Assembly: GCA_016933055.1 (NCBI GenBank)
Contig: JAFGBS010000008.1
Coordinates: 30,001 to 62,000, forward strand
Reading direction: 5' to 3'
From: Promethearchaeota archaeon
GTDB taxonomy: Archaea; Asgardarchaeota; Lokiarchaeia; Sigyniarchaeales; Promethearchaeaceae
DNA: 32,000 bases
Each line of letters begins with the position of its first letter. Positions within the stretch are counted from its first letter, which is position 1. The position numbers and the translations under genes are program-made. The notes beneath the pieces are model-generated. The model worked only from the letters and a program-made list of their open reading frames with translations. It ran no database searches and had not been told where the DNA came from. Of the stretch, positions 1 through 20,546 are shown piece after piece.

Positions 1-66
1 AAACAGCTAAAATAAAATCATCCCTAACATTATTTCAAAAAATTAGCTAGAATCGGTACAAAGAAT

Positions 67-1026
67 ATGGATGAACTTACGAAATCCCCATCAAAGAAGA
101 TGCGTGCCATCATAAGATGCCTTAGACCGCATCAATGGTATAAAAACGGTGTAATCCTATTAGGGATATTCTTTGGGGGTAAAATTTTGGATTATCATCT
201 TTATCTGGAATTATTGGTAGGATTTATCACCTTAGGATTTGTGTCGTCCTTAAATTACCTTTTTAATGATCTTATAGATTATAGAAAAGATCAATCGCAT
301 CCCGAAAAAAAAACTCGTCCTATAGCTGCGGGGAATATTAAAATAGGTAGTGCGGTAGGCATTGCCATAATTTTGATAATATTGATTGGTTTGGGAAACT
401 GGGGAATTTATTTATTGTCATCTAAAGAGATCACCATTAATTTCAGCGCCATTTCACTTCTAATTATTATTCATGGATTATTTTACACTCTCTTATTCAA
501 ACATTATGCAATTATCGATGTGTTGACCCTATCATTGTTTTACATATGGAGAACACTGGCGGGAATCTTTATTGCAGATGTTGTTTTCTCCCCATGGCTT
601 TACCTCATCGTATTTTTAAGTGCATTATTACTCGCTGTAAATAAACGAAAAGCGGATCTACTTTTTTTGGGAAAGGAAAAAGCGATTCTACATAAACCAA
701 TCTATAGTAAATATTCTACGACATTATTGACTCAAGTTTCAACCATAGCTGCAGTTGGTCTTTTTATGACTTATGCATTTTATTGTATTTTGGGTCCTTT
801 GAGTGAATTTACTGGACCTGAATTACAAAATAATCAATATTTTATCTTATGCTCCATACCAATTGCGTTATATATCGTCCTACGTTATCTTTATATCGTC
901 GAAACGAAACTTGAAGTAGCAAGAAAAGCAGAGAAAGCTCTATTTGACGTGGGGATTATAACGGGAGGTATAATATTAGTGATTGTGATTTACATTGCAA
1001 ATTATGTGCCTTTACCATTCTGGTAA
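67..1026 (+). CDS. UbiA-superfamily prenyltransferase, decaprenyl-phosphate phosphoribosyltransferase (DPPR synthase)-like
   Basis: N-terminal RPHQWYKN, Asp-rich NDLIDYRKDQSHPEKKTRPIAAG, IDVLTLSLFYIWRTLAG and KRKAD motifs typical of the DPPR-synthase branch of UbiA; about 8-9 hydrophobic segments. Confidence 0.85.
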   Translation: MDELTKSPSKKMRAIIRCLRPHQWYKNGVILLGIFFGGKILDYHLYLELLVGFITLGFVSSLNYLFNDLIDYRKDQSHPEKKTRPIAAGNIKIGSAVGIAIILIILIGLGNWGIYLLSSKEITINFSAISLLIIIHGLFYTLLFKHYAIIDVLTLSLFYIWRTLAGIFIADVVFSPWLYLIVFLSALLLAVNKRKADLLFLGKEKAILHKPIYSKYSTTLLTQVSTIAAVGLFMTYAFYCILGPLSEFTGPELQNNQYFILCSIPIALYIVLRYLYIVETKLEVARKAEKALFDVGIITGGIILVIVIYIANYVPLPFW

Positions 1027-14249: not shown

Positions 14250-14981
14250 ATGATAATTCCATATGTCAATTCTGGGCAAATGCGTGAAATAGATCGAATT
14301 ATGGTGGAAAAATATCATATTACGCTGGAGCAGATGATGGAAAATGCGGGACGCAATCTCGCGATCCTTGCGCGATCACATTTTTTGTCTAAGGATACCC
14401 TTCATAAAAAAGTGCTTGTGTTAGTAGGTTCGGGGGGAAATGGTGGAGGGGGATTAACAGCAGCAAGATTTTTACATAATTGGGGTGCGGATGTTGTTGT
14501 TCTGTTGACAAAATCCATTGATGAATTAGAAGGAGCCGTAAAACATCAAGCTCAAATACTAATCGAATGAGGAGTTCCTTTGCATCTAACCACACCCCTT
14601 ACGGAATTAGAATTCCCCTTCCAGGTAGATCTCATCTTGGATGCAATAATCGGATACAGTTTAAAAGGAGAACCAGAAGGAAACGCTGCAATTCTTATCA
14701 AATCAGCAAATAAAGCTCAAGCTCCAATTGTATCTTTAGATATCCCCTCGGGTATGGATGCTAGCAGTGGTGAGACCTATGGGGACCTTACCATCAAAGC
14801 AACTGCAACGATGACATTAGGTTTTCCAAAAACGGGATTTCAAAATCTGGAAACAAAATATTACACGGGAAGCCTTTTTCTTTCAGATATATCTGTCCCT
14901 GTAAAACTATGTGAGGATTTGGAGTTAGGTTCCATAAGAAAGGGGATATTTCGTCGAGGAAGCATAATAAAAATTCGATGA
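14250..14981 (+). pseudogene. nnrE: NAD(P)H-hydrate epimerase (YjeF N-terminal domain) interrupted by an in-frame TGA at 14568-14570; pseudogene, split gene, readthrough or sequencing error
   Basis: ORFs 14250-14570 and 14580-14981 are in the same frame (offset 330 nt). First half has LEQMMENAG and GSGGNGGGG, second half has DAIIGY, SLDIPSG and TMTLGFPKTG; joined length 243 codons fits a standalone NnrE. Confidence 0.85.
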
Positions 14982-15715: not shown

Positions 15716-17011
15716 TTAACAGAAGAGATATTTTTTCCGTTCCCATTCTGTTTCTTTCCCGTGTTCTACTGCTTCCTTATGTTCTCGGATTTCTTCATGT
15801 TTTGTAGCTATGTAAATATCCATAAACGGTTTTCCTAATACACCCTTCATAAAACTAGATTGTTCAAATGCATCAACAGCTTCTTCCAAAGATTTTGGTA
15901 ATTGGGTGATTCCGAGTTCTTTGCGTTCTTTATCGGTCATGTTATCAACATTCTTGCTGGTTGGTGCGGGTGGTTCGATCTTCTTCTTGATTCCATCAAG
16001 ACCAGCAGCAAGTAGTACTGCATTTCCGAGATAAATATTCATAGATGCGTCACCTGCACGATATTCTACATGAGCTTTATTTTCATAACCTGGAACGCGC
16101 ATTAATGCAGTCCTATTTGCGATACCCCAAGCAGTATAGACTGGAGCTTCATGATCAGGCACTAATCTTTTATATGAATTTGTAGAGGGATTCAAAATTG
16201 CACATAACGCATCGATATGTTTAATCGTTCCGCCAATGAAGTGTCGTAGTATATCTGAAACCCCAGATTCCTCTGAAAATACATTTTCTCCTTTTTCATT
16301 TTCTAAATATTGATGGATATGAAGTCCATTTCCCGCTTGATCTGGAAAGGGCTTCGGCATAAATGTGCCGATGATTTCTTCTTCCAAAGCGACCGTTTTA
16401 ATAATAATTTTACTGGTTTGAACATTATCCGATTGAGAAAGTGCCTCACATTTCATAAGTTCAATCTCGTGCTGCCCAGGACCACATTCATGATGAATTG
16501 TGTGTGGTGCACCTTTTGGAAATGTTAGTATCATGTAATCAGTTATTTGGCGCCTAAGGAAGTGGAAAATGTCCATCGGAACGGTAGCCATATATTTTGC
16601 TTCATCTGCTGGGACCATATTATCCGTGACAAAGTACCACTCTAATTCGGGTCGAGTTAAATACGTAAAACCCATTTCCTGTGCTTGGTTTAATACTCTT
16701 TTAAAAATTGAACGAGGATCTAAGGGATGAGGTGTTCCATCGTTTCCATACATATCACAGATAAAACGAGCCAAACCGTCATCCCAAGGTAAGATTGAGT
16801 AAGTGGAATAATCTGGAATTGCTCTCATATCACTTTGTTCGGTAGCAAGAAAACCTAAGGAACTACCATCAACTCCCGTCCCCTCCCGCATATCCTCCCA
16901 ATTTTTTGCGGGGATTTCCACAGCTTTCAAATCTCCCAGTAAAGTGGTAAATTGGAATTGAATATAATCGATCTCATTCTGGATAAAGAATTCTGGTGTA
17001 AAATTGGTCAT
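15716..17011 (-). CDS. glnA: Glutamine synthetase, type I family
   Basis: DGSS, QSDM (D50-equivalent), PELEWY, HHECGPGQHE, MPKPF...GNGLHIH, SYKRLVPDHEAP (E327-equivalent flap), NRTALMRVP, VEYRAGD; AGGAG SD at 17021-17025. Confidence 0.85.
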   Translation of the reverse strand: MTNFTPEFFIQNEIDYIQFQFTTLLGDLKAVEIPAKNWEDMREGTGVDGSSLGFLATEQSDMRAIPDYSTYSILPWDDGLARFICDMYGNDGTPHPLDPRSIFKRVLNQAQEMGFTYLTRPELEWYFVTDNMVPADEAKYMATVPMDIFHFLRRQITDYMILTFPKGAPHTIHHECGPGQHEIELMKCEALSQSDNVQTSKIIIKTVALEEEIIGTFMPKPFPDQAGNGLHIHQYLENEKGENVFSEESGVSDILRHFIGGTIKHIDALCAILNPSTNSYKRLVPDHEAPVYTAWGIANRTALMRVPGYENKAHVEYRAGDASMNIYLGNAVLLAAGLDGIKKKIEPPAPTSKNVDNMTDKERKELGITQLPKSLEEAVDAFEQSSFMKGVLGKPFMDIYIATKHEEIREHKEAVEHGKETEWERKKYLFC

Positions 17012-17062: not shown

Positions 17063-17266
17063 TCCTACGGATTCCCACTTATTTCCCGATAGTTTTTCAT
17101 CACAATATCAGATACGCAAATCACAAATCTAACCTTTTTATGAATTTTAAGTAAACTAGATTTTCATATTTTTACCCGAGTAGTTAAGCAATAAAGCCAA
17201 ATATCTATATAGTGCAATTAGCATATTAGAAATAAAATCTATCTTACCAATGGGAAGGTATCAAAA

Positions 17267-19192
17267 TTGGCAACAATTCAATTTACAATCTCAAATATTG
17301 ATCTGGAGGATTTTTCCGCAAAAAGAACAATCTTAAAGATGTCTTTAGGCATTATTCTGGTGTTCGATTTGGGAAAACCCGAAACCTTCCAGAACCTTAA
17401 AAACCACATGTTTGAAATCACCCAAAATGCTGGATATATCCCCATCATTCTCATGGGCACAAATAAAGAAATCGAAGAAGAAATGGGAGAACTCATTCCA
17501 AGCATGGATATTGATCAATTCATGTTCAAGTATGGCATTAACCATTTTATCAAAATATCAATGAGTACGGGTGAGGGCATTCGGCGAGCATTTGAGGTGA
17601 TATCGGATGAAATCATTAAAGAAACCATTCGAAAATTAGGTCCCGATGAAATTAAACGAAAAACTCAATTCAGCTATGCAATTGCAATGATCGGGGATAA
17701 AATTATTCGAAAAGATTTAATCTCGGAATATGATTCGGCACGATTTGCCGCTCCAACCTCGACTATGGGTGGTGCGATTTCTCGAAAAACTTTAGATCGT
17801 GATATTCACCACCTAATTCCGGAACCGCGTATGGATAAAGATCTTCCTCCAGCTGTCTCTCCTCAACCCGAAGCAGAACTTGGTAAACCCACCGAATTAA
17901 AAAAAGATATTGAGGAATTAAGTGATGAAATCATCGAAAAAATAGCTATAACGGAAAGATTGCAAGCAGAGATCGACACAGAACAACAGAAACTGGAAGA
18001 AATCGTTCAAATGAAACAAGAGGTAAAAGAACCAAAAAAAGAAACGATTTCTGGTGATGAAATTCGATTAGAAAAACCCAAACCTTTAGCTCCGATGAAA
18101 TTCAAAGAGACCGAGGAGGATATTGAGTTACCCTCGGATTTAAAGGATGCCATCGAAAAAGAAGTCAAACGAGTCCGATCAGAAATTGCCGATGAAGAAA
18201 AAAAGGAAAAGATAATTGGAACATTGACACCATCAAGTGCTCCTCCTCCACCGCCACCAGGGTCTCCTCCTCCGATTGTTTCACTGGAGGAAAAACCAGA
18301 ACCTATATCTCCTCCAAAACCAAGAATTGTGGAAAAACCACGATTAAAAGCGAAAAAGCAACGAAAATTGGCTGAACGGGGAAAAAGTGAAATGGAGTCA
18401 ATGGCTGAAGAATATATTTCAGAACCATCCACAGTACCAGAACCTTTTATGGTAGTTGAAGAAGAAGTAGAAAAGGTGGTTACAGCCGAAAAACCACCGG
18501 AAGATTTCACTTGGGGAGGGGCAGAAAAAGCTCCTCACATGATGGAAATTACTACCGAGAAATTAAAACGGAAAACTACCGTGTTTTATCGAGAACGGAT
18601 GAATCCGGAAACTTTGAATAAGTTGGCGGTAGTATTATCGACAGAAAAAATTTATGAGAAATTAAAAATTACAATTGAGGAAGTCGCTCGAGCCGCGACA
18701 GACAAGATATTGGAGATCGATAAGGATCTTCCAATTGTGGATGTAGTACCAGAATTTCCGGGTTGCGTATGTGTTCCTTCAGTGCAACATATCAATGCAG
18801 AAAAGGAATATGATGTTGCATCCTTTCTAATTACACCGCTTCAGACGGGGGAAATTCCCGATGCCAAGGTGAAGTTGTACCATAAGGGACAATTGATTGA
18901 GACGATTCCAACCCCAACAAAGGTAGTGAAAACTACAAGTGCTAAGATATCGGCAGGTTTTGCAATAATCGTACCACTATTATCTCAATTTCCACTGATA
19001 TCAAATCCCATAAGTAATTTTCTAGGAGGCCTCATACCGTTTTACGAAACTGTTGGAGGAATCGAAGGAATCATATTGATGTTAACTGCATTATTTGCAG
19101 CTTTGAGCGGGTTATTATTTTTATTTAAAAGACCAAAAGATGCAAAACCCGTTGAAACTTTCCCAGAAATTGATGATGTCTTAAACAATTGA
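17267..19192 (+). CDS. Membrane-anchored multidomain protein: degenerate and apparently permuted small-GTPase fold, coiled-coil, Pro/Glu/Lys-rich linker with polyproline, uncharacterised beta domain, C-terminal hydrophobic anchor
   Basis: GIILVFD...ETFQNL, PIILMGTNK, KISMSTGEGIRRAFE (Ras beta4 to alpha5), followed by YAIAMIGD...STMGGAISRKTL (Ras beta1 to beta2); PPPPPPGSPPP at 18242-18274; hydrophobic aa 561-576 and 601-620. TTG start uncertain. Confidence 0.7.
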   Translation: MATIQFTISNIDLEDFSAKRTILKMSLGIILVFDLGKPETFQNLKNHMFEITQNAGYIPIILMGTNKEIEEEMGELIPSMDIDQFMFKYGINHFIKISMSTGEGIRRAFEVISDEIIKETIRKLGPDEIKRKTQFSYAIAMIGDKIIRKDLISEYDSARFAAPTSTMGGAISRKTLDRDIHHLIPEPRMDKDLPPAVSPQPEAELGKPTELKKDIEELSDEIIEKIAITERLQAEIDTEQQKLEEIVQMKQEVKEPKKETISGDEIRLEKPKPLAPMKFKETEEDIELPSDLKDAIEKEVKRVRSEIADEEKKEKIIGTLTPSSAPPPPPPGSPPPIVSLEEKPEPISPPKPRIVEKPRLKAKKQRKLAERGKSEMESMAEEYISEPSTVPEPFMVVEEEVEKVVTAEKPPEDFTWGGAEKAPHMMEITTEKLKRKTTVFYRERMNPETLNKLAVVLSTEKIYEKLKITIEEVARAATDKILEIDKDLPIVDVVPEFPGCVCVPSVQHINAEKEYDVASFLITPLQTGEIPDAKVKLYHKGQLIETIPTPTKVVKTTSAKISAGFAIIVPLLSQFPLISNPISNFLGGLIPFYETVGGIEGIILMLTALFAALSGLLFLFKRPKDAKPVETFPEIDDVLNN

Positions 19193-19511: not shown

Positions 19512-20546
19512 ATGTCGTACAATAAATTATGTAAAATAATTCTCCCCTTTCTACTCTCTGCGATTATTGTGAGTGTTATCTCGATCCCCACTAATTTCAA
19601 CGGGAATCCGAACACCATTATTGCTTTGCATGTATCGGGTCCTAAACCTGTTACAAATGCCTCCCTTATGATTAGCAATGATTCCGGGTTTATAACTTAT
19701 GGATTTCCAGGGAATGGGTCTGCCGAAAATCCATACAGAATTGAGAATTATTCATTAGTGTTTACGTTCAACAGTACAACTGCAGGAATTCTGATAGAAA
19801 ATGTTACAAAACATTTCATCATTCGCAATTTGACACTTACAAACAATAATACTGAATTATTAGGAACCGGAATTCGAATTCTAGCAGATAATGGAGTAAT
19901 TGAGAATGTTACTATTGAAAACACTTTAAATGGAATTCATTTGGAGGGAAATAATCTTCAAGTGAATTACACGGCTATAAATTCACAACAATTTGGATTG
20001 TGGTCCAAAGAGTGCACCAATTTGAACATCACTAGTAATAATATTACGGGAGCCGCCTATGGAGTCTATCTATTATCATGTAATAAAACAATAATTTCGG
20101 ATAATATAATTTTTAATGGTAACAATGGTATTCAAATTTACGGAAGCACCAATTTTGAAATTAAGCATAATATAATATCCCAAAATTCTGAGAAAGGACT
20201 ATTTATCGTAGAAACTCCTCCCAAAAAGGGAGAAATTAATTTAGTCATACGGAATTGGTTTTTCCAAAATGAAATGCAAGCGTTAGTAATTACTGATGAT
20301 ATTAACACTATTTTCTACGATGTTACATCTCAAGAAGGTAATTATTGGTCGGATTGGCGCGGTTGGGGTAACTATAAAATTCAAACTGATGTGTATGATA
20401 TATATCCTCTTGATCAAAATCTCGAGTTAGCTACCCGTTATCCATTCAAGTTTTGGTTTTGGATTTTTGCTCCAATAATTATTGCTCTGGGTGCGGTTAC
20501 CTATTTCTTCTATTGGAAACTTATTATCCAACCTACAAAAGAATAA
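19512..20546 (+). CDS. Secreted/membrane-anchored right-handed beta-helix protein (NosD/CASH, pectin-lyase-like)
   Basis: N-terminal signal/TM, GFPGNGSAENPYRIEN, repeated N..I.NN / GI.L rungs, GNYWSDW motif, C-terminal TM; many N-x-S/T sequons. Confidence 0.85.
   Translation: MSYNKLCKIILPFLLSAIIVSVISIPTNFNGNPNTIIALHVSGPKPVTNASLMISNDSGFITYGFPGNGSAENPYRIENYSLVFTFNSTTAGILIENVTKHFIIRNLTLTNNNTELLGTGIRILADNGVIENVTIENTLNGIHLEGNNLQVNYTAINSQQFGLWSKECTNLNITSNNITGAAYGVYLLSCNKTIISDNIIFNGNNGIQIYGSTNFEIKHNIISQNSEKGLFIVETPPKKGEINLVIRNWFFQNEMQALVITDDINTIFYDVTSQEGNYWSDWRGWGNYKIQTDVYDIYPLDQNLELATRYPFKFWFWIFAPIIIALGAVTYFFYWKLIIQPTKE

Follow-up and report, generated by a model that had tools for sequence, protein, structure and literature searches.

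A gene for a putative membrane-tethered pseudo-GTPase was analyzed in a 32,000-nucleotide (nt) stretch of DNA from a Promethearchaeota archaeon of the Lokiarchaeia (contig JAFGBS010000008.1, positions 30,001 to 62,000; GC content about 36%), which is called the window below. The gene, on the + strand, starts with a TTG codon at 17267 and ends at 19192, the coordinates given in the preliminary description of this DNA; its product has 641 amino acids (aa). Its N-terminal head is almost certainly a circularly permuted fold, and all five G motifs were lost in the window protein and its orthologues, referred to here as the window clade. The best explanation overall is that the gene very probably encodes a conserved permuted pseudo-GTPase that descended from an intact permuted family. 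Judging from its residues, the head probably lacks canonical GTP binding and hydrolysis.

Permuted order and predicted structure of the head domain

The head (aa 1-185) almost certainly keeps a Rab-like fold in which the elements run from beta3 to alpha5 and then continue with beta1-alpha1-beta2. The gene and the parts of its head are as follows.

17267..19192, + strand: whole gene, TTG start, 641 aa
17267..17641, + strand: segment 1 (aa 1-125), beta3-alpha2-beta4-alpha3-beta5-alpha4-beta6-alpha5, from Pfam Ras positions 66-161 and the structure alignment
17642..17665, + strand: alpha5-to-beta1 connector, RKLGPDE, resembling PRLGE of the intact relatives
17666..17800, + strand: segment 2 (aa 134-178), beta1, decayed P-loop, short alpha1, switch-I equivalent, G2 remnant and beta2
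17795..17827, + strand: post-beta2 family motif DRDIHHLIPEP; D.D..LP.E stands at the same site in the intact relatives

When the window protein was scanned against Pfam, Ras (PF00071) was the sole family found, with an E-value of 8.6e-8 and 32.4 bits (cut-off 21.6), and nothing GTPase-like was detected after beta2. Since the profile was matched from position 66 only (66-161 of 162), aa 1-125 correspond to the beta3-to-alpha5 part of the fold. Segment 2 was compared with a hidden Markov model (HMM) built from 46 canonical small GTPases. It aligned in register with beta1, P-loop, alpha1, G2 and beta2, scoring 7.4 bits alone, a value equalled by 1 of 2000 shuffles. The re-ordered window sequence gave a single contiguous match to the same HMM (positions 4-175, 104.6 bits). 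With an HMM of the intact permuted members, the head in its natural order formed one contiguous alignment (aa 19-176, 91.6 bits), to which segment 1 alone contributed 77.8 bits and segment 2 a further 13.8 bits. Shuffling of segment 2 gave a mean of 77.5 bits (standard deviation 0.9, maximum 82.5), and the native score was reached in none of 500 shuffles. The head could also be aligned end to end with 16 intact members in the family alignment (A4, 24 sequences). A permuted, motif-degenerate Ras-like fold with the order G3-G4-G5-G1-G2 and a cut in the beta2-beta3 hairpin, as proposed in the preliminary description, was thus borne out.

AlphaFold2 run on the family alignment produced a model with a predicted local distance difference test score (pLDDT) of 88.2 and a predicted template-modelling score (pTM) of 0.86, and its elements followed the order that the permutation predicts: strands (E) and helices (H) E2-12, H13-25, E28-34, H38-55, E60-65, H67-73, H79-89, E93-96, H105-124, H127-130, E134-143, H149-154 and E171-178. 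Low confidence was confined to residues 158-168, which correspond to switch I, and alpha1 was shortened. A single-sequence run on aa -15..198 was useless (pLDDT 39). The top Foldseek matches of the model were KRAS, Rab27, Rab11 and Rab1, over about 108 columns with a root-mean-square deviation of about 2 A. Rab and Ras chains superposed on model residues 1-125 (Z 11-11.7). VIA-align placed model residues 1..127 on Rab1b 54..180 (Z 11.7), likewise with Rab11a, Rab8a and Rab3, and residues 1-12 were aligned with the Rab beta3 strand. In a search of 48,161 representative chains, the model also matched permuted GTPases of the YlqF type with solved structures:

1puj_A, YlqF: Z 10.7, 142 residues aligned, model 14..177
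3h2y_A, YqeH: Z 9.8, 140 residues aligned, model 14..177
8pv1_Cd, pre-60S factor: Z 10.4, 137 residues aligned, model 14..178
3jct_m, pre-60S factor: Z 9.2, 142 residues aligned, model 14..179
2yv5_A, RsgA/YjeQ: Z 8.8, 121 residues aligned, model 19..177
6h4d_A, RsgA/YjeQ: Z 8.7, 119 residues aligned, model 25..178

These alignments cross the alpha5-beta1 junction of the model. Because YlqF-type proteins also run from alpha5 into beta1-G1-alpha1-G2-beta2, segment 2 is predicted to sit at the canonical beta1/alpha1/beta2 position. This agrees with the packing that the preliminary description had assumed for the segment; the model was confident and the YlqF alignment spanned residues 14-177.

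Intact relatives, motif decay and selection

An exhaustive phmmer search with aa 1-200 recovered relatives at 25-32% identity, with alignments extending from about residue 20 to about residue 180 on both sides. Their motifs were intact and ran in the order beta3 with G3 WDLGGQ, G4 GNKxD, G5 TSAK, the connector PRLGE, beta1 with the P-loop GxxGVGKT/S, and G2 TVGVDF or TIGVDF. The permuted intact order was found in at least 21 clusters. Against the canonical HMM the intact relatives gave two swapped matches (aa 3-119 to HMM 56-170 and aa 138-183 to HMM 8-53), which became a single match over HMM 8-170 upon re-ordering. Within the window's own genome, about 25 canonical paralogues matched the permuted query as two adjacent pieces in reverse order. 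The swapped matches, the re-ordering test and the reverse-order matches together indicate that the intact relatives are circularly permuted. All source-named relatives of the window protein were from Asgard archaea. The intact permuted relatives are annotated merely as 'GTP-binding protein', and our literature searches found no paper on Asgard permuted small GTPases.

Collinear matches in the own genome were confined to two loci, C17:213426-214007, which is intact and shares 61% identity with P0013, and the window gene (28%). The intact paralogue occupies G000:C17:213411-214730; other intact members are P0012, P0013, P0015 and P0156. As this paralogue keeps the synteny of the intact forms (Fe-ADH_2, the gene, and a convergent gene for a TPR/JAB protein), the window clade represents a separate paralogue at its own locus. 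The convergent neighbor of the intact gene (L016, G000:C17:208000-220000; L013, L014 and L015) encodes a TPR protein of 630-730 residues with JAB matches at 3 of the 4 loci; Fe-ADH_2 often lies upstream, and an RNase_H_2/PolB-exo gene is found nearby. The intact switch may have this TPR/JAB protein as a functional partner.

The remnants of the five motifs in the window gene are listed below, together with their state in the intact members, the window clade and the more distant P0009.

17294-17314, + strand: G3 remnant NIDLEDF; intact WDLGGQE; clade IDL---E, with a three-residue deletion that removes Gly and Gln
17456-17473, + strand: G4 remnant GTNKEI; intact GNKxDL; clade GTNKE[IAVS]; P0009 GANKDL
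17555-17572, + strand: G5 remnant ISMSTG; intact TSAK; window clade and P0009 S[MTI][SKQ]
17693-17716, + strand: decayed P-loop (G1) GDKIIRKD; intact GxxGVGKT; clade GDKxIRKD, with Gly to Arg and Thr to Asp
17756-17776, + strand: G2 remnant TSTMGGA; intact conserved Thr; Thr not conserved in orthologues

Partially decayed permuted GTPases were observed as well (P0023, P0029, L019 at G017:C209, L020 at G014:C181 and L021 at G033:C354). The sole change in P0029 was Gln to Glu in G3. P0023, L019 and L021 had lost G3 and kept G4, G5 and G1, and L020 had lost G4 and kept G1. From the residues retained, such forms may bind GTP yet fail at hydrolysis or guanine selection.

When the C-terminal module was used for a tree, with members that carry another type of head as the root, the window clade (support 100/99) came out as sister to P0029, L019 and L021 (99/99 together), and both groups were nested among intact forms. 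Since G3 is weakened or lost in the sister lineage, motif loss looks stepwise with G3 first. The window protein would accordingly descend from intact Lokiarchaeial permuted Rab-like GTPases carrying the same FPGC module and membrane hairpin, and the switch machinery would have been lost in steps, G3 first (already impaired in the sister lineage) and then G4, G5, G1 and G2. In a tree of the G domains, built from re-ordered sequences, the permuted clade was sister to an Asgard canonical Rab-like paralogue (SH-aLRT 92). Two proteins with complete tandem Rab-like domains, P0067 and P0093, aligned with the permuted head across their domain junction. An intermediate of this type would be expected if a duplication followed by loss of the ends had produced the permutation, which is a plausible historical route and not the present state.

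Proportions of nonsynonymous (pN) and synonymous (pS) differences were determined for the window gene against three orthologues; pS was saturated (0.69-0.84), and pN differed among the regions.

Segment 1: pN 0.11-0.15
Segment 2: pN 0.23-0.26
C-terminal module: pN 0.10-0.14
Linker: pN 0.42-0.47

By this comparison the degenerate head is as constrained as the membrane module and under purifying selection. Distribution was examined in 81 species genomes of the order, the window's own included, representing 19 genera. The degenerate head (E <= 1e-15) was restricted to the window's genus (2 genomes), the intact permuted head occurred in 29 genomes from 7 of the 19 genera, and the C-terminal module in 15 genomes from 11 of the 19. 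Intact and degenerate genes coexist in both genomes of the genus.

Linker, membrane module and upstream DNA

The remaining parts of the gene and the conserved DNA in front of it were located as follows.

17206..17239, + strand: conserved non-coding upstream block, from the aligned upstream DNA of four orthologues
17206-17212, + strand: TATA-like TATATAG, within the upstream block
17221-17239, + strand: GCATATTAGAAATAAAATC, conserved 19-nt block, which overlaps the 'open frame from 17222'
17822..18586, + strand: variable Glu/Lys/Pro-rich linker, aa 186-440 (255 residues), from composition and high pN
18242-18274, + strand: polyproline run PPPPPPGSPPP, inside the linker
18587..18946, + strand: soluble part of the C-terminal module, about 120 residues, with RKTTVFY..MNP, FPGC and TPTKVV; common to intact permuted GTPases
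18755-18766, + strand: FPGC, within the C-terminal module
18947..19189, + strand: two hydrophobic segments (aa 561-579 and 597-620) and a basic KRPKDAKP tail, from a hydropathy scan

The two hydrophobic segments and the basic tail are predicted to form a membrane hairpin anchor. The whole module (MNP...FPGC...TPxKV, two hydrophobic segments and basic tail) is shared by the window protein, P0012, P0013, P0015, P0029, P0156 and L003. It belongs to no Pfam or NCBIfam family, and NCBIfam returned nothing for the whole window protein. In the ESM Atlas the C-terminal part matched unnamed Promethearchaeota clusters only; its structural neighbors there, which in bacteria are fused to TIR, kinase or EAD11 domains, were weak, and with a model pLDDT of 0.53 they serve as a lead only. 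In other Lokiarchaeial genera (L022-L026, at G009:C1, G010:C1, G013:C280, G022:C1 and G005:C20), the FPGC and two-helix module was found behind a Pro-rich linker that joins it to a different head, about 100 residues long. No Pfam family was found in this alternative head. Because a non-GTPase head precedes the module in these genera, it looks like a general membrane anchor for exchangeable heads.

Six orthologues with 71-78% identity to the window protein either share its first residues (MATIQFTISNIDLEEF...) or have Met25, an internal residue, as their annotated start; gene callers begin two of them, P0005 and P0006, at an internal Met. In the four orthologues whose upstream regions were aligned, the start codons TTG/TTG/ATG/ATG line up, the TTG of the window gene corresponding to the ATG of L002 and L018. 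L002 has a stop codon one codon ahead of its ATG. The TATA-like element plus GCATAYTAGAAATAMAATC (window 17206-17239) was common to the four orthologues, and the distance from this block to the start codon varied by 10 nt among them; this difference in spacing indicates that the upstream stretch is regulatory and not coding. The block is probably the promoter and transcription-start region, and GGGAAGGT (17252-17259) may serve as ribosome-binding site of the TTG codon. The HIRNKIYLTNGKVSK stretch, considered as a beta2 remnant, was rejected, as it lies on the non-coding block with variable start spacing. No P-loop remnant was detected in the three frames upstream of the window gene, and no G1 in any frame of the upstream DNA of the orthologues. 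Upstream, across a gap of 255 base pairs, a glutamine synthetase gene occupies the opposite strand (15716-17011), and this divergent neighbor is kept on two orthologue contigs. Since the orthologues share the start, the divergent neighbor and the upstream block, nothing is truncated in the window gene.

A NosD/beta-helix gene lies directly 3' of the pseudo-GTPase gene in the window (19512-20546, + strand) and in L001 (3736-4791), where the divergent glutamine synthetase gene is also present. Further upstream, a YjeF_N (NAD(P)HX-epimerase-like) gene (14250-14981, + strand) contains one in-frame TGA (14568-14570). Its orthologue at L002:386-1114 is unbroken, with Asn-Ile at the TGA position. A nonsense mutation, an error in sequencing or read-through could account for the TGA, which is not an obvious selenocysteine site.

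Alternative explanations and known systems

Under the proposed explanation, the head would be a constitutive interaction surface that needs no nucleotide, and a long flexible linker rich in Pro, Glu and Lys would hold it at the membrane, while the intact paralogue keeps switching beside it and the head may act on the same partners. Several results weigh against this reading. Segment 2 is statistically weak when taken alone, being too short and too decayed for database searches. A profile of its six orthologous sequences, run with HMMER against PDB sequences, hit no GTPase (best match lipoate ligase, E 0.79), and the six sequences gave no GTPase match singly against Pfam. An hhalign comparison with segment 2 of the intact relatives was weak, at E 0.021 and a probability of 2.3, though in the right register over 23 columns. 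We infer the packing of segment 2 from two overlapping sequential structural alignments, and the scaffold role is likewise something that we infer. In the G-domain tree the degenerate clade stood on a stem of length 1.36 and was unresolved with the permuted clade, so the ancestry of the degenerate head rests on collinearity and the C-terminal module. Furthermore, the first P-loop Gly and the Lys (G143 and K149) are invariant across the 24-sequence family alignment, and some non-canonical phosphate or nucleotide contact through them is possible.

This invariance, with the strong purifying selection on the domain, also speaks for a head that still works as a nucleotide switch with non-canonical motifs, taking ATP, GTP or a phosphate ligand through the Gly and Lys. 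Such a switch is nevertheless improbable. The P-loop glycines are replaced by bulky Lys, Ile and Arg and the Mg-binding Ser/Thr by Asp, a deletion has taken three residues from DxxGQ, NKxD has lost its Asp, SAK is gone, alpha1 is shortened in the model, and all five motifs fail together, a pattern seen in pseudo-GTPases without nucleotide binding. That the head is a regulatory partner of the intact paralogue, pairing with the intact switch or competing for its effectors, is a somewhat speculative and rather unlikely extension. The preliminary description had left room for remnants of two tandem GTPase domains, because the frame is open from 17222 with a possible beta2 there, and for a gene with a truncated or frameshifted 5' end; the natural tandem proteins P0067 and P0093, which align across the junction, fit this idea too. 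It is very improbable, and the caveat was rejected, given the 10-nt shift in spacing, the common first residue of the orthologues, the stop before the ATG of L002, and the lack of an intact G1 or a remnant of it upstream in any frame. In the intact forms, G1 and G2 are found nowhere but behind alpha5, which means that the two parts must complement each other; moreover, the model forms one domain, and the YlqF alignment runs through the two parts. The loss of all G motifs and the confinement to one genus would suit a functionless, decaying head behind a selected C-terminal module, but this is hardly credible with a pN close to that of the module and with a linker value 3-4 times higher at saturated pS. 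Head identity among orthologues (71-78%), the absence of frame disruptions and the confident fold argue against a relic as well. A permuted pseudo-GTPase derived from the intact family therefore stays the preferred explanation.

The permutation topology itself is not new. The cpRAS domain of eukaryotic CPRas proteins, known from a few eukaryotes, has the order G3-G4-G5-G1-G2: helix5 runs into strand1-helix1-strand2, and the cut falls between strand 2 and strand 3 (Elias & Novotny 2008, Biol Direct 3:21; PMC2430557). Anand and colleagues, quoted there, had argued that a break in the beta2-beta3 turn should prevent folding (PMC2430557). The cpRAS domain was the only published case of this order found in our literature searches. 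The preliminary description was therefore right that the YlqF/YawG order differs and incomplete in its background, as the same permutation had been published for cpRAS (PMC2430557). Motif order and break site are identical in cpRAS and the window head. However, cpRAS belongs to the RAS family proper, is eukaryotic, carries a 'TIE' G2 and intact motifs, and occurs in VWA or COG2373-like proteins (PMC2430557), whereas the G2 of the window protein's intact relatives is Rab-like (TVGVDF/TIGVDF) and their partner is a membrane module instead of VWA. The nearest longer non-permuted matches of the intact head were all from Asgard archaea, and no eukaryotic cpRAS was among the best 120 matches, which is weak evidence. 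The Asgard permuted family likely arose independently of cpRAS, and it indicates that the beta2-beta3 cut has been tolerated repeatedly.

The YlqF/YawG (YRG) proteins, including YlqF/RbgA (1PUJ), YqeH (3H2Y), RsgA/YjeQ (2YV5 and 6H4D) and Nog2/Nug1-type GTPases, resemble the head in being permuted P-loop GTPases with beta1-G1-alpha1-G2-beta2 placed behind alpha5 (Z 8.7-10.7). Their order is G4-G5-G1-G2-G3 with beta3 last, whereas beta3 comes first in the window head and the alignments with them start no earlier than model residue 14. They are active ribosome-assembly TRAFAC GTPases with RNA-binding domains and are not Rab-like. Although the head scores above the PF00071 cut-off, it departs from the canonical G1-G2-G3-G4-G5 order of that family. 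The Lokiarchaeial intact family shares with the window protein the order, the RLGE-like connector, the acidic post-beta2 motif, the disordered linker and the FPGC module with its membrane hairpin; it keeps the five G motifs that the window clade has lost. The loci also differ: the intact family has Fe-ADH_2/gene/TPR-JAB, and in the window clade a divergent glutamine synthetase gene lies upstream and a NosD-like gene downstream.

Pseudo-GTPases are GTPase folds without G motifs that serve as scaffolds or allosteric partners, such as CENP-M and the p190RhoGAP pseudo-GTPase domains. The window head shares with them a G-domain fold under selection and the loss of the nucleotide-binding motifs, and differs in being permuted, archaeal and, by prediction, membrane-tethered; we know of no described pseudo-GTPase with this circular permutation. 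Its tether leaves the domain at the interswitch end, whereas in Ras and Rab it leaves at alpha5. If a pairing with the intact paralogue is real, it would be an archaeal case of the active/pseudo-enzyme pairing known from eukaryotic signaling. For annotation, the analysis bears on a protein without an NCBIfam family name. The novelty lies in the fully degenerate pseudo-GTPase branch, which is restricted to one genus, in its apparently stepwise origin and in the evidence of selection on it: in the window gene the permuted fold remains under selection even with every nucleotide-binding motif gone. Taken with its sister lineages, the window clade would provide a natural series, ordered by phylogeny, in which a working switch becomes a pseudo-GTPase; the series comes from the archaea that are closest to eukaryotes, and living genomes would then record each step of the change.

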